NCBI GenBank assembly: GCA_046583315.1
Contig: JAYGCN010000270.1
Location: 1-12,140, forward strand
Source: Candidatus Hydrogenedentota bacterium
GTDB taxonomy: Bacteria; Hydrogenedentota; Hydrogenedentia; Hydrogenedentales; GCA-2746185
Direction of reading: 5' to 3'
Length of the DNA: 12,140 bases
The translations under genes and the position numbers were made by a program. The notes beneath the pieces are model-generated. The model searched no databases and had not been told where the DNA came from. It saw only the letters and a list, made by a program, of their open reading frames with translations. Below are positions 112 to 12,015 of the stretch, in pieces (within the stretch, counting starts at the first letter, position 1; each line of letters starts with the position of its first letter).

Positions 112-1074
112 TCAATCAGCCTTTGCCGATCGCCTGACAACATATTGACTGCCGTACGTGGTCGCGCGAAGGATGCGAACCATGTATTGCCCGATGATGC
201 CCAGCGACACCATGAGAATACCAGAGTAGAAGGACAGAAGAACAACAATCGTGGTAAATCCTGGAACGCCAATCTGCTGGGTTACATTCAGATAGATGGC
301 GTAGGCTCCGTATCCCATCGACAAGAACGAAGCGATGGCACCTACGACGCTCATCAACTGCAGCGGCATCGAACTAAAGTTGAATACATGATTCGATGCC
401 AGCGCGACCAGTTTGTAGATTGAATAGCCAGAGCGTCCGTATTTCCTGGCTTCGCTCCGCACGACCACGTTGTCGATATTCGAAGTATTCATGCAGATGA
501 GAGAGCAGGTCGTGATTTTGTTTCCCCGGTAAGCGACCAGCGCATCGCGCACGTGGCGATCCAGCAAAATAAAACTCGAGAATCGGATATTCTGGGGTTT
601 CTTAATCAATACATTCATCAGCTTTCCAAAAAAATAGCTCCCGATATTTCGAAAGAGGGAATGCTCGCGCTTCTTCGATACGCCGATGAGTACGTCGAGT
701 CGATCATTGGCCTCCAGCTCCGAGATCAACATCGGAATGTCCTCCGGCGCATGTTGCAGGTCATCGTCCATAATGACAATTCGCCTTCCACGGGCCTCAT
801 TTAGCCCGCACATGGTCGCATTCTGTTGACCCGAATTCCGCATCAACTGAAGCCCCACTACCTGGGGATTGGTTTCATGCAAGGATTGGATAGTCGCCCA
901 CGTCTCCGTATTCGGCGATGCATCGTCAATCAGAATCAACTCAAAGGTAGCCTCGAGTGTAGTCGAGAAAACAGTATGTATTCGCTCGTAAAGTTCTGCA
1001 AGCGATTCAACACTGTTGTAAACCGGAACCACGACCGAATAATCGACCTCTTGGCTTGGCGTTTCGTCGGGCAT
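112..1074 (-). CDS. Family 2 glycosyltransferase, polyprenol-phosphate glycosyltransferase type (ArnC/GtrB/DPM1-like)
   Basis: 320 aa with SVVVPVYN, LILIDDAS, RNSGQQNA, IMDDDLQHAPEDIP (DxD) and RKYGRSGYS motifs, plus two C-terminal hydrophobic helices. The donor sugar cannot be determined from sequence. Confidence 0.9.
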   Translation of the reverse strand: MPDETPSQEVDYSVVVPVYNSVESLAELYERIHTVFSTTLEATFELILIDDASPNTETWATIQSLHETNPQVVGLQLMRNSGQQNATMCGLNEARGRRIVIMDDDLQHAPEDIPMLISELEANDRLDVLIGVSKKREHSLFRNIGSYFFGKLMNVLIKKPQNIRFSSFILLDRHVRDALVAYRGNKITTCSLICMNTSNIDNVVVRSEARKYGRSGYSIYKLVALASNHVFNFSSMPLQLMSVVGAIASFLSMGYGAYAIYLNVTQQIGVPGFTTIVVLLSFYSGILMVSLGIIGQYMVRILRATTYGSQYVVRRSAKAD

Positions 1075-5913: not shown

Positions 5914-7346
5914 TATTCCACCGCCTCCGTTACATCCTCAGCTGAAAAATCATCCAAATGACTACCCAGTAATCGCTCCAAATCAACAACACCAAGCTGA
6001 TACTCGGCCATTGCCTCCATGTGCTGGTTGCGCACAATAAACAATGTTCGTTGGGCATCCAGCACGCTCAGATAGGGAAACTTCCCCAACTCGAATCCAG
6101 TCTTGGTCGCTTCATAAGCCTTGAACGCAATGGGCACGACATCAGTTTCGAGTGTACGCACTTCGGACAAAATACCATTCATTTTTTCATGCTGGCTGGT
6201 TACGCGTCCCAACAGATTCGCTTGTTTCGCTCGTCGACGGTACGAGGCCTCACTCACGCGGTGCTCCGCTTCACGAACGCTTCCTTGATTCCGGTTAAAG
6301 ATTTGCAGGGGAATCGAAAAACCCAGTACAAACGAATTCTCCCGATTGTCCTCAAAACTGGATCGATCACGACCGGAAAGTATCCCGTTTCCATCAAACG
6401 ATGTCGACGATGAATCCGCTAAGCCCGTGCTTCGCCATCCCGCGCTCACCGTCACGTCCGGCTTGCCAAGCGCTCGTTCCAGATGAACCGCCTCCTCACG
6501 GCGTATGACCTCCGCACTCCATCGCGCCAGCTCAGGAGTCTCGAGCAGGGATTTTTCCAGACTGGAGCGATCCGGCAAAGAAACCACTTTCGAGAGATCG
6601 CCTATTGCACGTCCGGCATCAGTCGACGCGCCTCCCCATTGCGCCGCCAACGTCGCACGCGCCGCATTCAGTTCGCGCTCAGCCTTTGCCAACGAAATGC
6701 GTGCCTGCGCAAGAAGAATGTCAGCACGATTTCCTTCCAACGGACTTATCTTTCCGCTATCGATACGCTCATGCACAGTTTTGCTCGCAGCACCCGCCAT
6801 CTCAATGAGCTCTTGCTGCAAAGCCATTCGTTCCTGCCCGGCCAAGACCTCGATGAATGCGTGGCGCGTATCCGCAATGATGTCCGCGCGTGCAATCTCA
6901 TAGTCCCAAAGCGCGACCCGCGTAGCCTGATTCGCGAGTGCTATCCGCTTTGAACGTTTTTGACCCAACTCGAAACGCTGTGATACGGACACGGTAATTT
7001 CCGAACCATCAAAACCGTCATTATCAACGCCGCTGACCGATCGGCCAGTGACCAATCCCCCGCCATCGGTGGTCACCGTATCCGAATCCGGACCGTCAGA
7101 AAATCTGAGCTCCTCCATTTCGAATGAAAGCTCGGGATTGGGGCGCAGTCCGGCCTGAAGCACCGCAGCTTCCGAAGCATTGACGGACGCACGCAAGGCG
7201 ATCAATGCTGGATGCTGCCGCAAGGCACGTTCAACGGCTTCACGTTCAGAAATCGAGCTTTGCGCTACGGATACCTGCGAAAAAATAAGACAAAATGCGA
7301 ACACCCTTATCGATAGACACAAATTCCTTGACATAAAAATACACAC
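5913..7346 (-). CDS. czcC: TolC-family outer membrane efflux protein (CzcC-like)
   Basis: 477 aa. Signal peptide (..VSVA|Q), QAGLRPNPEL, SQRFELGQKRSKR, SIPLQIFNRNQG and GFELGKFPYLSVLDAQRTL. GTG start 8 nt after AAGGAG (7360-7355). First gene of a CBA arrangement. Confidence 0.9.
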
Positions 7347-7347
7347 G

Positions 7348-7426
7348 TTGAATTCTCCTTTTGATGAAGGAACAAGAGGAGAATCAAGTTCTCCTCTCCA
7401 CAGACAAACAAGCGCTGCGGAAAGGA
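7348..7426 (-). promoter_or_regulatory. Putative translational attenuator (four alternative pairing segments) controlling the czcC ribosome-binding site
   Basis: On the mRNA, seg1 UCCUUUCCGCAG (7426-7415) pairs with seg2 CUGUGGAGAGGA (7403-7392) over 12 bp with 2 G-U. AGAGGAGAA (7397-7389) pairs perfectly with UUCUCCUCU (7383-7375). UUGAUUCUCCUCUUG (7387-7373) pairs with CAAAAGGAGAAUUCAA (7363-7348), which contains the SD. Confidence 0.7.
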
Positions 7427-7879
7427 TTAACGTTGAAGCAGAACGCTCCGGAGAGATACGAGGCTATACGAGAGAGACTTGCGTGAATCGGAATTCGGGA
7501 GCCGATGGAGCCTAAAAGAGACGTTCAATTCAGTGAGCAGTGAACCAATGGACGGGAGCAACAAATCATCATGTACCGCATGGCGCGTAGAAACCGCACT
7601 AAATTCCTCATGTTCTGCCAAAGGAATATCGCTGCAGTCCCCACAATGGTCACCTCCGGCGTTATTGAAGCGTGCACTTTCATAGCGGAATTCGCCAGCA
7701 CGATGTTTCGCCTCTGAAGCAATCACGGACGAGCAATCGCCATCACTGGCCGCCTCAACCTCCGAATGCCCATCCGCGCCAATACACAAGACAAGACTGC
7801 TGGCATGAGGGGCGTGCAAAATACCCAGGAAAACCGTGACGATGCACAGGCTCGACGTAAATTTCGTTTTCAGCCACAT
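7427..7879 (-). CDS. Hypothetical exported Cys/His-motif protein upstream of czcC (CzcI-like position; candidate metal-sensing leader ORF), about 150 aa
   Basis: From ATG 7879: basic then hydrophobic N-terminus (MWLKTKFTSSLCIVTVFLGILHAPHASS), LCIGADGHSEVE, DGDC, HCGDCSDIPL, and C-terminal SLRSVLLQR. The ORF-track start (TTG 7915) coincides with the predicted -35 box and is probably not used. Confidence 0.7.
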   Translation of the reverse strand: MWLKTKFTSSLCIVTVFLGILHAPHASSLVLCIGADGHSEVEAASDGDCSSVIASEAKHRAGEFRYESARFNNAGGDHCGDCSDIPLAEHEEFSAVSTRHAVHDDLLLPSIGSLLTELNVSFRLHRLPNSDSRKSLSYSLVSLRSVLLQR

Positions 7880-7886
7880 ACTCACT

Positions 7887-7921
7887 ACTGTAAACCTTAT
7901 CCAAATCAAGATCAAAAAAAA
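7887..7921 (-). promoter_or_regulatory. Candidate sigma70 promoter for the leader ORF-czcCBA transcript, predicting a leaderless mRNA
   Basis: Minus strand T-tract running into TTGATC (7915-7910), exactly 17 nt, TACAGT (7892-7887), then 7 nt to ATG 7879. No good SD precedes that ATG. Confidence 0.55.
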
Positions 7922-8122
7922 TGCACGATGTCTAAGGCAATGAAACCCATGACAGACACCACAGGTTCCATATAAATCGTCAGAATCGGCTCGTGGCGTG
8001 CCTCAACACCACCACGAATCGGTTGGATGGACGATACGAACCCAATTCATCCCATGACGGTATCGTGACAGAATGAGTGTCCCGCAATCCCAATGCGCTG
8101 CGCGTCACCGACCGAAATATGA

Positions 8123-8620
8123 TTACTCGAGCAGCTGCGTTTCGGTATTCTCGTGGTGCGGCTGCAAGGACTGATGCATCTCCAGGGTTCGCACGACGGC
8201 GTTCCAGCGGAAATACGCTTCGTCATTCCCCTTCGGACGCCCCTTGGCAGCCTTGTCAAAGAATTCCAGTGCTTCCTGGAACCAATCGTACGCGACATGC
8301 GCCGAACTCATGGTATCCATCTTGAAGTGTGCGCGCGCTCGTCGCTCACACAGCAGACCGGAGTAATAGTTGCGATCATACCCGCTCTTCAATTCATCCA
8401 CCAGAAGTTGCGCCTCTTCAAAGGCATGCATCCGCTCAGGCAACTGATCGGAAAGCGAGAGGATTAACATGATCTGAGCGTCGTGGTTTTCGGAATCCAC
8501 CGCGAGGATATCCAAACACAAACTTTCGGCTTCGTTGGGCTCGTTGAGTAATCGATACCTCTCGGCCATCGCCAATGCTCGCGGAACCGAAGCCTTCGAG
8601 ATTTTCTTAAGCTGTTTCAT
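8123..8620 (-). CDS. Hypothetical all-helical (TPR-like) protein, fourth gene of the sdh operon
   Basis: 165 aa. ATG with AAGGAG (8633-8628) directly after the sdhB stop. TPR-like helix pairs (AERYRLLNEPNEAESLCLDILAVDSENHDAQIML; AYDWFQEALEFFDKAAKGRPKGNDEAYFRWN). No signal peptide or TM segment is apparent. Confidence 0.8.
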   Translation of the reverse strand: MKQLKKISKASVPRALAMAERYRLLNEPNEAESLCLDILAVDSENHDAQIMLILSLSDQLPERMHAFEEAQLLVDELKSGYDRNYYSGLLCERRARAHFKMDTMSSAHVAYDWFQEALEFFDKAAKGRPKGNDEAYFRWNAVVRTLEMHQSLQPHHENTETQLLE

Positions 8621-8633
8621 CGAAATTCTCCTT

Positions 8634-9377
8634 CTATTTCTTGATCATCCGAATGATCTTACGTATGGGATCGTAGAAATCATCAGCCACACGTTCTTTG
8701 AGCGGGATGATGGCATTGTCGGTGATCAAAATCCCCTCCGGGCACACCGTCGTGCAACATTTCGTGATGTTGCAGTAACCGATTCCATATTCGTCTTTGA
8801 GTTCCTTCGTTCGTTTCTCCGTATCCAGCGGCTGCATTTCCATTCCAGCAGTGTACACCAGAAATCGCGGTCCAATAAATTTGTCATGCAGCTTATGTTC
8901 GCGTAGAACATGGCATACATCCTGACAAAGATAACATTCGATGCATTTGCGAAACTCCTGGACGCGTTCGGTGTCCATGGTATGAATGTTCCACGTTCCG
9001 TCTTCATGGTCCGCGGGTCTCGGCGTAAACTTTTGTATCTTTTCCTTCACGCGATAGTTCCAGGAAACGTCGCAAACCAGGTCTTTCTGTACGGGGAATG
9101 CCTGCATAGGCTCGATCGTGATCGTCTCATCAAGAGGTAGATCACTCATCCGCGTCATGCACATCAGTTTGGGGCGACCGTTGATTTCAGCGGAACAGGA
9201 ACCGCATTTCCCCGCCTTACAATTCCAACGCACGGCCAGGTCATTCGCAGATTCAGCCTGAATCTGGTGAACCGCATCGAGCACGACCATGCCCTCGGAG
9301 ATTTCTGTCGTATATTCCTCGAAATCACCGCCGCTCTCATCGCCACGCCAAATACTGAATCGTGCTTCAGCCATCAC
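8634..9377 (-). CDS. sdhB: Succinate dehydrogenase/fumarate reductase iron-sulfur subunit (Rv0247c/Sdh1-like)
   Basis: CKAGKCGSC...LMC ([2Fe-2S]), CIECYLCQDVC and CNITKCCTTVCP ([4Fe-4S]/[3Fe-4S]) motifs. The start is GTG 9377 or ATG 9374, both overlapping the sdhA stop, with GAGGAG upstream. Confidence 0.92.
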   Translation of the reverse strand: MMAEARFSIWRGDESGGDFEEYTTEISEGMVVLDAVHQIQAESANDLAVRWNCKAGKCGSCSAEINGRPKLMCMTRMSDLPLDETITIEPMQAFPVQKDLVCDVSWNYRVKEKIQKFTPRPADHEDGTWNIHTMDTERVQEFRKCIECYLCQDVCHVLREHKLHDKFIGPRFLVYTAGMEMQPLDTEKRTKELKDEYGIGYCNITKCCTTVCPEGILITDNAIIPLKERVADDFYDPIRKIIRMIKK

Positions 9378-11200
9378 GCGTTCTCCTCGATAATGCTGGT
9401 TTGTTCGCTCGTGAGTGTCTTTATCGGTACTTGTCGAATAACCATGCTGCCATCTGACTGTTTATTGATGATGATATTGACCTTGGCAAATTCATCGCTT
9501 TTGTCGGGATAATCGTCCCGAAAATGCGCACCGCGACTTTCCTTGCGCTCGATACCCGCCCGTGTTGCCGCCTCAGCCACCGTGAGAAGATTCTGGAGAT
9601 CCAAAGCCGTGTGCCATCCGGGATTGTACTGGCGATTTCCGCACGCCGCAACGGTCTTAACGCGTTCATTCAGCTGCCCTATTTTGTCGAGCGCTTCCTT
9701 CATGTCATCCTCAACGCGGACAATCCCGACTTGTTCCTGCATGAAGTCCTGCAATTCGTACTGTATCTGGTAGGGGTTTTGCGCGTCACCCGATGTTTCT
9801 TCAAAACGCTCCAAAGGCGCCAAGGCTTGCTGCGTGAGATCGTTGATGACATCGTCGCTCGTCGTGGAATGGTCATATTCCTTGGCGTGAAGCGCAGCGT
9901 TTTCGCCGGCCCTGTTTCCAAATACGAGAAGATCGGACAAGGAGTTACCGCCCAATCGATTGGCTCCGTGCAGACCGGCCGCACATTCGCCCGCTGCATA
10001 AAGTCCCTGGACCGTCGACATTTGCGTATCCGCATCAACATGAATCCCGCCCATCGCATAGTGCGTCGTGGGGCCTACTTCCATCGCCTCTTTGGTGATG
10101 TCGATTCCGGCGAGTTCCTTGAATTGGTGGTACATGCTGGGCAGTTTTTTCTTGATATGCTCTTCGGCTTTCGGAAGATGTTCCTTAATCCACGAGATAT
10201 CCAGAAAGACGCCTCCATGCGGACTGCCTTTCCCCTCTTTAATCTGTTTTACGATACAACGGGCGACGTGGTCCCTCGTCAACAGTTCAGGCGGACGACG
10301 CGCATCCCGATCCCCTTGCGTGTAGCGCCACCCTTCGTCTTCGTTGTCAGCGGTCGAACTCACGTATAAGTCCGGAATGTCATCGAACATGAAACGGCGG
10401 CCTTCGCTGTTGGTCAAAACGCCGCCTTCACCGCGAACGCCTTCGGTCACGAGAATGCCGCGTACACTAGGCGGCCACACCATGCCGGTCGGATGAAACT
10501 GAATGAATTCCATGTCTATCAGTTCGGCACCGGCATCGTAGGCGAGCGTATGCCCGTCTCCGGTATATTCCCAACTATTGCTGGTTACTTTGTAGGCACG
10601 TCCGAATCCACCGGTAGCCATAATCACGGCCTTGGCTTTGAACAGGCGGAATCGGCCTTTCTCCCGCTCATAAGCGAAAACACCCGTAACCCGGTCCCCG
10701 TCCTTCAGCAGGCGGTACACGGTAAATTCCATGTGGAATTCGATTCCCTGATGAATTCCGTGATCCTGTAGCGTGCGAATCATTTCCAGGCCCGTGCGAT
10801 CACCGACATGCGCAAGTCGCGGGTATTTGTGACCACCGAAATTGCGCTGAAGAATCTTCCCTTCCTTTGTGCGATCAAATAAGGCACCCCACGCTTCCAG
10901 CTCGCGAACTCGATCCGGCGCTTCACGAGCATGTAACTCGGCCATCCGCGAATTATTCAGATATTGACCGCCGCGCATCGTATCGGCGAAGTGGACCTTC
11001 CAGCTGTCGCGTTCGTCGACGTTGGCCATGGCAGCAGCGACACCGCCTTCTGCCATTACGGTATGCGCCTTGCCCAAAAGCGACTTGCAAATCACGCCAA
11101 CTTTTACACCGGAGGCCGATGCCCTGATCGCCGCACTTAATCCTGCGCCGCCGGCACCGATTACCAATACGTCATATTCGAAAGTTTCAATGTCCGCCAC
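9374..11200 (-). CDS. sdhA: Succinate dehydrogenase/fumarate reductase flavoprotein subunit (Rv0248c/Sdh1-like), about 608 aa
   Basis: GAGGAG FAD-binding motif, KAHTVMAEGG (covalent-FAD His), QFHPT, TEGVRGEGG, RDHVAR, HYAMGGI, HGANRLGGNSL and RKESRGAHFRDDYP. Start revised to GTG 11200, which overlaps the upstream TAG (TAGTG), with GGAGA 8 nt upstream. Confidence 0.95.
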   Translation of the reverse strand: MADIETFEYDVLVIGAGGAGLSAAIRASASGVKVGVICKSLLGKAHTVMAEGGVAAAMANVDERDSWKVHFADTMRGGQYLNNSRMAELHAREAPDRVRELEAWGALFDRTKEGKILQRNFGGHKYPRLAHVGDRTGLEMIRTLQDHGIHQGIEFHMEFTVYRLLKDGDRVTGVFAYEREKGRFRLFKAKAVIMATGGFGRAYKVTSNSWEYTGDGHTLAYDAGAELIDMEFIQFHPTGMVWPPSVRGILVTEGVRGEGGVLTNSEGRRFMFDDIPDLYVSSTADNEDEGWRYTQGDRDARRPPELLTRDHVARCIVKQIKEGKGSPHGGVFLDISWIKEHLPKAEEHIKKKLPSMYHQFKELAGIDITKEAMEVGPTTHYAMGGIHVDADTQMSTVQGLYAAGECAAGLHGANRLGGNSLSDLLVFGNRAGENAALHAKEYDHSTTSDDVINDLTQQALAPLERFEETSGDAQNPYQIQYELQDFMQEQVGIVRVEDDMKEALDKIGQLNERVKTVAACGNRQYNPGWHTALDLQNLLTVAEAATRAGIERKESRGAHFRDDYPDKSDEFAKVNIIINKQSDGSMVIRQVPIKTLTSEQTSIIEENA

Positions 11201-12015
11201 TAAAAAAATCTCCAATCTGTCCATATACCCATCGCGCACATTCGAATGTATACATCGGTGAACCCGACCCAGACCAGGCTCACCCATGCCCAATTCATAT
11301 GCCGCTTATTCAAGGAGCTCACACAGTCGTAACACGCTTTCGACACCTTTGCTTTCTCAAAACAATTCAATCGTCCGCCGAAAAGATGACGGCTGCAATG
11401 ACAGCCAAAGGTGTATCCGCCCAGGAAAATGGCGTTCAACAAGAGAACAATGGAGCCCACGCCGATGCCGAACTTGTTGCTGCCATCATCGGAAGTGAAC
11501 CAGAATGCCCGGAGCGCATCGTAAGTCAAAACAAAAACGAAAAGACAGGCGACGTAAAAAAAGAAACGATGCGCATTGTGCAAGATAAGGGGCAGCCGAT
11601 TCTCTCCCCAATAAGACTTGCGCGGTTCGCCGACGGCACACGCAACCGGGTCTGCCCAGAATGCTTTATAGTAAGCACCACGATAATAGTAGCAAGTGAC
11701 ACGCATGCCTGCGGGCCCCGCGAGAATCAGAATCGCCGGTGAAAAGGGAAGAAAACTTGGCCACCAACCGGGCTGGAGTGCTGCAAAAATGCGTGGTTCA
11801 TGGGCTTGCCCGTACAGGAGCGGTGAGTACATCGGGGAAAGATAGTGGGCACCACCTTCATGAAAAAAATAATTCACGCCTTGCATACCCGCCCAAGTCG
11901 CATAGATGACGAAACTCGACAGGATTGTGAACACGGTTAACGGCTGGAGCCACCACCGATCCGTTCGTGAGGTTTCACCAAATCGTCTCGGCTTAATCGC
12001 GTTCGTTTCTGACAC
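11200..12015 (-). CDS. Succinate dehydrogenase membrane anchor of the mycobacterial Sdh1 (Rv0249c-like, type F) family
   Basis: 271 aa with several TM helices. RTDRWW, YLSPMYSP, RVTCYYYRGAYYKAFWADPVACAVGEP, GENRLPLILHNAHRFFFY, GCHCSRHLFGG and LNKRHMNWAWVSL match the Rv0249c family as I recall it. GTG start with AAGGAG (12029-12024). Directly upstream of sdhA. Confidence 0.85.
   Translation of the reverse strand: MSETNAIKPRRFGETSRTDRWWLQPLTVFTILSSFVIYATWAGMQGVNYFFHEGGAHYLSPMYSPLLYGQAHEPRIFAALQPGWWPSFLPFSPAILILAGPAGMRVTCYYYRGAYYKAFWADPVACAVGEPRKSYWGENRLPLILHNAHRFFFYVACLFVFVLTYDALRAFWFTSDDGSNKFGIGVGSIVLLLNAIFLGGYTFGCHCSRHLFGGRLNCFEKAKVSKACYDCVSSLNKRHMNWAWVSLVWVGFTDVYIRMCAMGIWTDWRFF

Follow-up and report, generated by a model that had tools for sequence, protein, structure and literature searches.

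A widespread family of exported-type, cysteine-containing leader proteins with a proline-free tail at the stop codon, candidate cis-acting regulators of czc metal efflux genes

Exported, cysteine-bearing arrest leaders located before metal and Dsb genes have already been published for RAPP and RGPP proteins. Among the described systems, arrest by CruR has been demonstrated in vitro, and the CruR report places its sensing in the cytoplasm (PMC9426467). For CutF, a recent preprint proposes that metal control operates through the loss of a folding pull (10.1101/2025.02.05.636593), and OEP/CzcC genes are given as the commonest neighbours of CutF-like proteins in the corresponding survey (PMC9973294 / bioRxiv 2022.11.11.516240). 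Exported uORFs that stall with the stop codon in the A site are also a precedent, and the sec-linked uORFs that arrest at the stop come from a screen of uORFs with localization signals.

Here, we describe a leader encoded 80 nt ahead of czcC-czcB-czcA in the window, i.e., the whole stretch of 12,140 nucleotides analysed (Table 1), together with its relatives. On balance, we think it probable that this leader is exported and acts in cis. In the presence of metal, the ribosome translating it would stall on the leader stop codon, and the stall is predicted to expose the ribosome-binding site of czcC.

Table 1. Features of the leader and of the genes and RNA that follow it in the window.
Feature	Position	Strand	Basis or remark
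Leader ORF, 150 aa	7427..7879	minus	ATG to TAA; ORF list and family homology
Predicted Sec-type signal segment, aa 1-28	7796..7879	minus	Basic start, hydrophobic helix; hydropathy proxy and AlphaFold2 helix 7-21
VLCxGxDGHxxxE motif, aa 30-42	7754..7792	minus	Predicted beta-hairpin bearing C32, D36, H38 and E42
C49	7733..7735	minus	Kept in 60/62 aligned homologs
CxxCxD motif, aa 79-84	7628..7645	minus	C82 lies 68 residues before the stop; predicted strand 83-86 next to it
Stop-anchored tail LRSVLLQR-TAA	7427..7453	minus	Candidate termination-stage arrest motif; family consensus R[TS]xxL[LR]I-stop
RNA segment 1, pyrimidine tract right after the stop	7415..7426	minus	Predicted pairing with segment 2, ribosome absent
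RNA segment 2, purine-rich	7389..7403	minus	Predicted pairing with segment 1 or segment 3
RNA segment 3, anti-SD	7373..7385	minus	Predicted pairing with the czcC SD (off) or segment 2 (on)
RNA segment 4, czcC Shine-Dalgarno region	7351..7363	minus	Folding prediction
czcC-like outer-membrane factor, 477 aa	5913..7346	minus	Pfam OEP 161.9 bits; GTG start at 7346
czcB-like periplasmic adaptor, 500 aa	4411..5913	minus	Domain-model searches
CusA/CzcA-family heavy-metal RND pump, 1050 aa	1238..4390	minus	TIGR00914 1554.9 bits, cut-off 701

The leader protein and its family

The 150-aa ORF singled out by the initial annotation, which gave no strand, was borne out and lies on the minus strand. A longer TTG start at 7915 was set aside, as the ATG at 7879 is a better fit to the lengths of the homologs. 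The residues C32-x5-H38, C49 and H78-C79-x2-C82-x-D84, the C-terminal tail SLVSLRSVLLQR, and the 68-residue distance between C82 and the stop all occur in the ORF as that annotation had them. Most of its ligand set is also kept among 62 aligned homologs, but the conserved glutamate is E42 and not, as had been proposed, E40, a position occupied by Glu in 14/62 and by Ala in 40/62. C32, E42, and C82 are invariant (62/62 each), and D84 (61/62), H38 and C49 (60/62 each), C79 (52/62), and H78 (30/62) follow. In this alignment, only the Cys/His motifs and the tail are conserved, as had been expected.

By a proxy based on charge and on hydropathy over 11 residues, with the starts of the homologs picked by a rule of our own, an export signal is predicted for nearly the whole set: hydropathy ahead of C32 reaches at least 2.0 in 56/62 members (3.0 in the window leader), and 61/62 carry a net positive charge over their first 12 residues. 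Lipoproteins follow the lipobox consensus, which V-L-C does not fit, and a lipoprotein reading of C32 was therefore discarded. In an AlphaFold2 model of the leader (mean pLDDT 64.6, pTM 0.38), a helix at 7-21 and strands at 28-33, 39-45, and 83-86 were predicted, the remainder being unstructured. Searched with this low-confidence model, Foldseek returned no match at E ≤ 0.001, and a comparison with known metallochaperone and zinc-ribbon folds gave a best Z of 2.3 and no usable match; such failed fold matching is not evidence for a new fold.

A single-sequence search of the 5.8-billion set with the window leader found no relative beyond itself, and the relatives were recovered through genome searches and profiles. 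Among 61 related genomes, 18 clear homologs were identified (L020 was removed as a false match), a profile from these 18 had matches in 60 of the 135 genomes of the phylum, and a 62-member profile matched 5,870 representatives at E ≤ 0.001 (1,874 at E ≤ 1e-10). Selection by the N-terminal motif gave 113 matches, 80 of them with flanks, from about 15 phyla as judged by record title, with Poribacteria heavily over-represented. The members share a hydrophobic N-terminus, the arrangement VLCxGxDGHxxxE...C...CxxCxD, a variable linker, and R[TS]xxL[LR]I at the stop. Since the leader is carried by named isolates, namely Methylomonas sp. DH-1 (on a plasmid; WP_157198341.1), Magnetospirillum fulvum MGU-K5, and Melioribacter sp. 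Ez-97, direct testing is possible.

Among the models of Pfam and NCBIfam, no family was found at E ≤ 1 for the window leader, and the 62 members gave scattered single weak matches only. The nearest clusters in the ESM Atlas are without a name; its named clusters DUF8199, DUF2946, and DUF6769 have few features in common with the leader and serve as leads only. A literature search among papers outside subscription found no paper on the tail strings or the leader family, its one match being a Giardia paper. None of the leader motifs occurs in the text supplements of PMC9973294, three in number; PP-bearing relatives could be present in its figure S6 logos and File S1. The leader family is real, widespread, and unannotated, and what is new about it is a tail that lacks proline and is anchored at the stop codon.

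Three loci have unusual arrangements. At L163, a 16-residue duplication lies between the first Cys motifs, and the distance from CxxC to the stop stays at 69; at L115, a premature stop is found inside the leader and the pump genes are still downstream; and at L055 (G119:C495), two family leaders lie back to back, pointing in opposite directions.

The tail R[TS]xxL[LR]I-stop keeps a fixed register to the stop codon. Of 305 distinct tails, many of which were found with profiles that include the tail, 299 have Leu or Ile at -3, compared with 15% of long own-genome ORFs; all of the 46 non-redundant members picked by the N-terminal motif alone have it too. The strict motif lies flush against the stop codon in 130 of the 305, and in none do further residues come after it. 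The pattern [LI][LRQI][IVC]-stop closes 48/62 members vs. 7/3,254 long own-genome ORFs, which is more than chance. The last two residues of the window tail, QR, are atypical, as R at -1 occurs in 4/305 tails. Because the Leu/Ile codon at -3 is free to vary at its third base, selection acts on the peptide, and selection at the nucleotide level was ruled out. All three stop codons occur, with 36 TGA, 15 TAG, and 2 TAA in the phylum loci and 29 TGA, 8 TAG, and 9 TAA in the N-terminal-motif loci. The tail is without proline and corresponds to no tested arrest motif. Among the last 15 residues, PP was found in 5/62 and 12/147 members and a RAPP-like string within the last 20 in 2/62; both are absent from the window leader, in which the lack of a RAPP or Pro-rich arrest motif had already been remarked on.

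An L-x-I end is also compatible with a protease or PDZ signal. In an alternative that we regard as unlikely, the tail would serve as a C-terminal signal, for degradation or PDZ binding, through which the exported leader is cleared, in an operon controlled by its promoter and with translational coupling that is unregulated. That the tail must end at the stop is what a free-carboxyl signal would require, and nonpolar C-termini are named as degradation signals in PMC9426467; R or Q at -2 (99/305 tails) and the conserved R at -7 nevertheless exceed a plain nonpolar end. Coupling also leaves unexplained the invariant Cys/His/Glu ligands and the distance from these ligands to the stop, which is three times less variable than the neighbouring linker.

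This distance was near-constant in the 62 proteins, in agreement with the initial annotation, which had named it as a check. From C82 to the stop it has a mean of 67.5 and an SD of 3.2 (CV 0.048; CV 0.158 for the C49-C82 linker of the same proteins), with CxxC 57-74 residues from the stop and about 60 from the tail Arg. A further 145 representatives gave a median of 69 (SD 2.6) from the last Cys to the stop. Periplasmic folding pulls an arrested ribosome when the folded part ends about 70 residues from the PTC, according to one study (bioRxiv 2021.02.06.430026), and another describes DsbA-dependent pulls for PhoA and about 50 extended residues as needed to reach the periplasm (PMC7513700). The ruler of 68-70 residues agrees with the distance measured for periplasmic folding force.

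Downstream genes and the intervening RNA

A czcC or czcB homolog was found downstream from 65 of the 69 distinct leader ORFs of the phylum set, the other four having only 70, 109, 636, and 708 nt of DNA at hand, and 74 of the 80 loci selected by the N-terminal motif only lie ahead of such homologs. The other six precede an RND adaptor (one), a weak TolC-like gene (one), a RidA/FkbO-like gene (two, one of them scanned), and ORFs that by eye only look transposase-like (two). Selection by the tail only gave 94 metagenome matches, 77 of which are ORFs of at least 70 aa with at least two Cys upstream; two of the 77 look like chance, and the nearest Cys has a median distance of 68 residues from the stop. 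While 24 of these ORFs lie ahead of czc homologs and 23 have <600 nt downstream, 30 precede other genes: an unknown ORF and a Sel1 protein (nine), dsbB-dsbA (six, four of them Pfam-confirmed), a Cys-rich ORF without a Pfam match (four), and, one or two each, HMBD/OEP, SCO, ResB, TerC, cytochrome c, and RidA-like genes. The location directly upstream of metal transporters foreseen by the initial annotation was borne out but is not exclusive, given the loci with dsbB-dsbA, SCO, ResB, TerC, and RidA-like genes.

TM4 was read in 18 pumps (of 21 loci) and has DFG..VEN in 10, an atypical DFG in four, and AIA in four; we presume that the labels CzcA-type and CusA-type apply to such sequences. The window pump has DFG..VEN, here labelled CzcA-type, and its sequence suggests a divalent metal. 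That one leader serves three TM4 pump types and non-metal genes argues against one specific metal.

These neighbours bear on a second alternative, in which the same stall-and-unmask switch would take the disulfide-forming or export capacity of the envelope as its input, and metals would act indirectly by poisoning thiols or Dsb enzymes. We consider it distinctly improbable. It would account for the same-tail leaders before dsbB-dsbA in six of the 30 non-czc loci with at least 600 nt downstream, for those before ResB and SCO, and for the three pump types served by one leader family, and the four conserved Cys could make two disulfides, as modelled for CutF in that preprint (10.1101/2025.02.05.636593). 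On the other hand, H38, E42, D36, and D84, which resemble metal ligands, equal the Cys in conservation, metal pumps are found at most loci, and the RNA switch described below is weak at the dsbB loci.

Several neighbourhoods deserve separate mention. Three-Cys leaders with the family tail head dsbB-dsbA operons at L245, L254, L273, and L281 (also L283 and L284), and these leaders are a candidate feedback monitor of disulfide formation. In the L236 group (nine metagenome loci), tail-bearing leaders lie ahead of a 139-aa unknown ORF and a Sel1-repeat protein, and at L135, L143, and L266 the leader is followed not by a pump but by a RidA/FkbO-like gene of about 400 aa that shows no obvious signal for export. 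A small lipoprotein-like ORF (67-97 aa) is placed between the leader and czcC at L007, L008, L045, L049, L052, and L056, where the post-stop tract pairs with the SD of this ORF. In the window itself, the genes upstream of the leader (8123-12015, minus strand) encode a TPR protein of 165 aa, an Fe-S subunit, a flavoprotein-like ORF, and a 271-aa membrane protein without a Pfam match, a set that resembles a succinate dehydrogenase/fumarate reductase operon, and a family-2 glycosyltransferase with no apparent link lies downstream from czcA (112-1074, minus strand).

The spacer between the leader and czcC in the window has a fold z of -3.17 and is predicted to form a four-segment attenuator with 1:2 and 3:4 pairing. 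When the stop and 10 nt were blocked, the pairing swapped and the opening energy, 11.0 kcal/mol before, fell to 7.8. For most homologs, direct pairing of the post-stop tract with the SD is predicted, with letters that differ between lineages. A ribosome modelled at the stop lowered the opening energy by a mean of 5.3 kcal/mol in the N-terminal-motif loci (>2 in 31/40) and of 4.0 kcal/mol in the non-redundant phylum loci (>2 in 30/48), compared with 0.3 kcal/mol (>2 in 27/150) in own-genome controls; the drop was ≤2 kcal/mol in 9/40 and 18/48 loci, and it was small in Methylomonas DH-1 (0.6) and in four dsbB loci (0.4-3.0 kcal/mol). The 40 loci were taken from 46 after exclusion of two duplicates and four without a clear start, and the 48 are the non-redundant ones of 55 with a usable start, of 69; the controls are 150 of 509 gene pairs from one genome, with long ORFs, some possibly false. 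Downstream starts were hand-picked from SD-scored candidates, and related loci are not independent.

The tract pairs better with its own start region than with others (-12.1 vs. -9.0, and -12.0 vs. -9.9), a result that 0/10,000 permutations reached, and control segments and control genes had little or no such advantage for their own partner. As the own start region is the top partner of the tract in only 4/48, much of the pairing is generic SD complementarity. Anti-SD pairing peaks 3-10 nt after the stop (76 loci, 50 controls), and the modelled effect grows as the edge of the ribosome shifts from 9 nt before the stop to 10 nt past it, being complete at about 10 nt past. The anti-SD tract right after the leader stop is new here. 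No Rfam match was found at E ≤ 1 in 7200-8200; the promoter scan gave 0 sigma-70-like sites, and the terminator scan gave none in the window spacer and a single terminator-like match inside the leader ORF, at chance level.

The RNA switch, which the initial annotation had not seen, supports as a folding prediction the role of the leader in cis. Any ribosome that terminates normally would also melt this stem, and so the RNA data show coupling, not regulation; unregulated coupling, as considered above with the degradation signal, would need only a ribosome at the stop. Its promoter-control part finds no conserved regulator gene nearby: a transcription-regulator domain was detected upstream in only 4/44 loci (70 of 130 ORFs scanned, strict threshold).

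Over the 20 nt that follow the stop, the sequence is C-rich and about 69%-75% pyrimidine, vs. 52% in controls, as would suit control of transcription of the TnaC/CruR type, with the ribosome held at the stop covering a C-rich Rho loading site. CruR is described as acting through Rho (PMC9426467). We hold this to be very improbable for the leader: the tract is only about 20 nt long, the spacer is mostly paired by prediction, the tracts co-vary with their own start region, and no terminator-like site is present in the window spacer.

Even less probability attaches, in our judgment, to a product that works in trans as a stable periplasmic metal chaperone serving the pump, which would be in keeping with the predicted export signal, the metal-type ligands, and the tight linkage to pumps. 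About 60 C-terminal residues are predicted to be unstructured and are poorly conserved, yet of constant length, and the leader is the first gene in the loci examined, with the anti-SD behind it.

A possible metal-gated stall at the stop codon

Stalling in cis at the stop codon would bring these elements together. The sequence provides Cys/His ligands that are conserved, a linker that keeps its length, a tail anchored at the stop, and, within about 3-10 nt past it, an anti-SD. According to the folding predictions, the czcC SD would be paired when the ribosome is absent and free when a ribosome holds the stop in its A site. The leader chain would be exported co-translationally, and the last Cys motif would therefore be just in the periplasm when the ribosome reaches the stop. 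By analogy with CutF, the small Cys domain may fold without metal, possibly via disulfides, and exert a pull that leads to quick termination. Metal bound to the thiols may block this pull; release of the peptide would then be delayed by the aliphatic tail, allowing translation of the pump. With an efflux pump downstream and an RNA of this design, stalling must mean on.

A broader proposal is put forward tentatively, as one that may well prove wrong. The aliphatic [LF]-[LR]-I-stop tail could be a new termination arrest signal, freed by the folding of a Cys domain about 70 residues away in the periplasm. It would then define a large, overlooked class of transmembrane metal/thiol sensors, composed of the leader family and much of HYC_CC_PP, that control metal pumps and Dsb genes in about 15 phyla without a proline motif. 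If the tail arrests, it would represent a new means of delaying peptide release that works with both release factors, given the use of all three stops. The family lends itself to a sharp test of the control that a ligand in the periplasm exerts on a ribosome across the membrane.

Comparison with described leaders

The initial annotation had proposed a sequence-distinct family. This stands with respect to the models of DUF2946, CzcI, and CopL, which the members do not match, but has to be qualified for HYC_CC_PP (NCBIfam NF047658), to which the family looks distantly related. Judged from sequence, HYC_CC_PP is its nearest named kin, and no paper on it was found in the literature search. Like the leader, HYC_CC_PP proteins have a signal and a Cys...Cys...Cys-pair arrangement, and in 15/17 the last Cys lies 68-72 residues from the stop, the same ruler. 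They differ in keeping PP 11-18 residues before the stop and in having HYC and CC in place of VLCxGxDGH and CxxCxD; 10/17 end in aromatic-[LR]-[IN]-stop, whereas the leader has Leu, not an aromatic residue, at -3. The 17 matches come from 15/61 genomes (L334-L350), many ending F[LR]I-stop and all but one with P or PP upstream of the end, and their downstream ORFs resemble, by eye, RND pumps, heavy-metal-associated domains, and receptors. In hhalign, the leader family against 14 HYC_CC_PP proteins gave 37.6% and an E of 3.4e-4, partly driven by the signal segments; the NF047658 model matches 0/62 leader members.

The genome of the window carries a second Cys-rich leader of the exported type, of 158 aa and seemingly unrelated (G000:C202 = L329:536-1012, plus strand). 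It has PP 19-20 residues from its end, ends in PLLT, and lies ahead of TolC, an adaptor, and a CusA/CzcA pump; with a ribosome modelled at its stop, the opening energy goes from 8.2 to 2.0 kcal/mol.

CzcI of Cupriavidus metallidurans (NF045614) resembles the leader as a small exported Cys/His protein directly before czcCBA. It ends in PDRPQWSRLA, unlike the leader tail, its profile match to the leader family is 1%, and a ribosome at its stop leaves the opening of the czcC start unchanged (11.4 vs. 11.3 kcal/mol), unlike in the leader. NF045614 and NF045615 (CzcI) and NF033807 (CopL) match 0/62 members, the positive control CzcI2 scoring 156.7 bits. The sec-linked stop-arrest uORFs also have a conserved end fixed to the stop; their motifs are others, and the passages available report none of them as a metal sensor.

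CruR of Bordetella pertussis (DUF2946, PF11162) is, like the leader, the first gene of a metal operon, and the spacing between its CxxC and a C-terminal motif is conserved (PMC9426467). Unlike the leader, it is described there as signal-independent, Rho-based, and metal-off, with a RAPP motif, and its CxxC-RAPP spacing is 45 residues, vs. the 57-74 from CxxC to the stop in the leader. PF11162 matches 0/62 members and not the window leader at E ≤ 1, and it does recover true members in other genomes; three such DUF2946 matches have their last Cys 52-53 residues from the stop, vs. about 68 in the leader family.

CutF of Rhodobacter capsulatus, a uORF before cutO, shares with the leader the exported type, the Cys content, an SD-hiding stem, and a metal-on logic for a detoxifying gene. 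The mature part of CutF has four Cys, and the leader also has four conserved Cys. The mechanistic likeness, an SD-hiding stem opened by a ribosome at the leader end, is found in the leader by folding only. CutF is described as stalling on a C-terminal PPP run, whereas the leader tail is without Pro and the predicted stall is at termination. The rules for CutF-like proteins (Ozturk 2023) are a short length, an N-terminal signal peptide, a same-strand neighbour within 1,000 nt, and PP in the last 15 residues. The leader has 150 aa and a neighbour at 80 nt, its signal is predicted by hydropathy only, and it lacks PP; with PP in only 5/62 members, the filter of that survey would drop most of the family. 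Surveys of metal leaders lean on Pro-rich motifs, as in CutF and CruR, and the leader family was thereby largely filtered out. The leader likely works like CutF, yet it stands outside DUF2946, CzcI, and CopL by model and motif.
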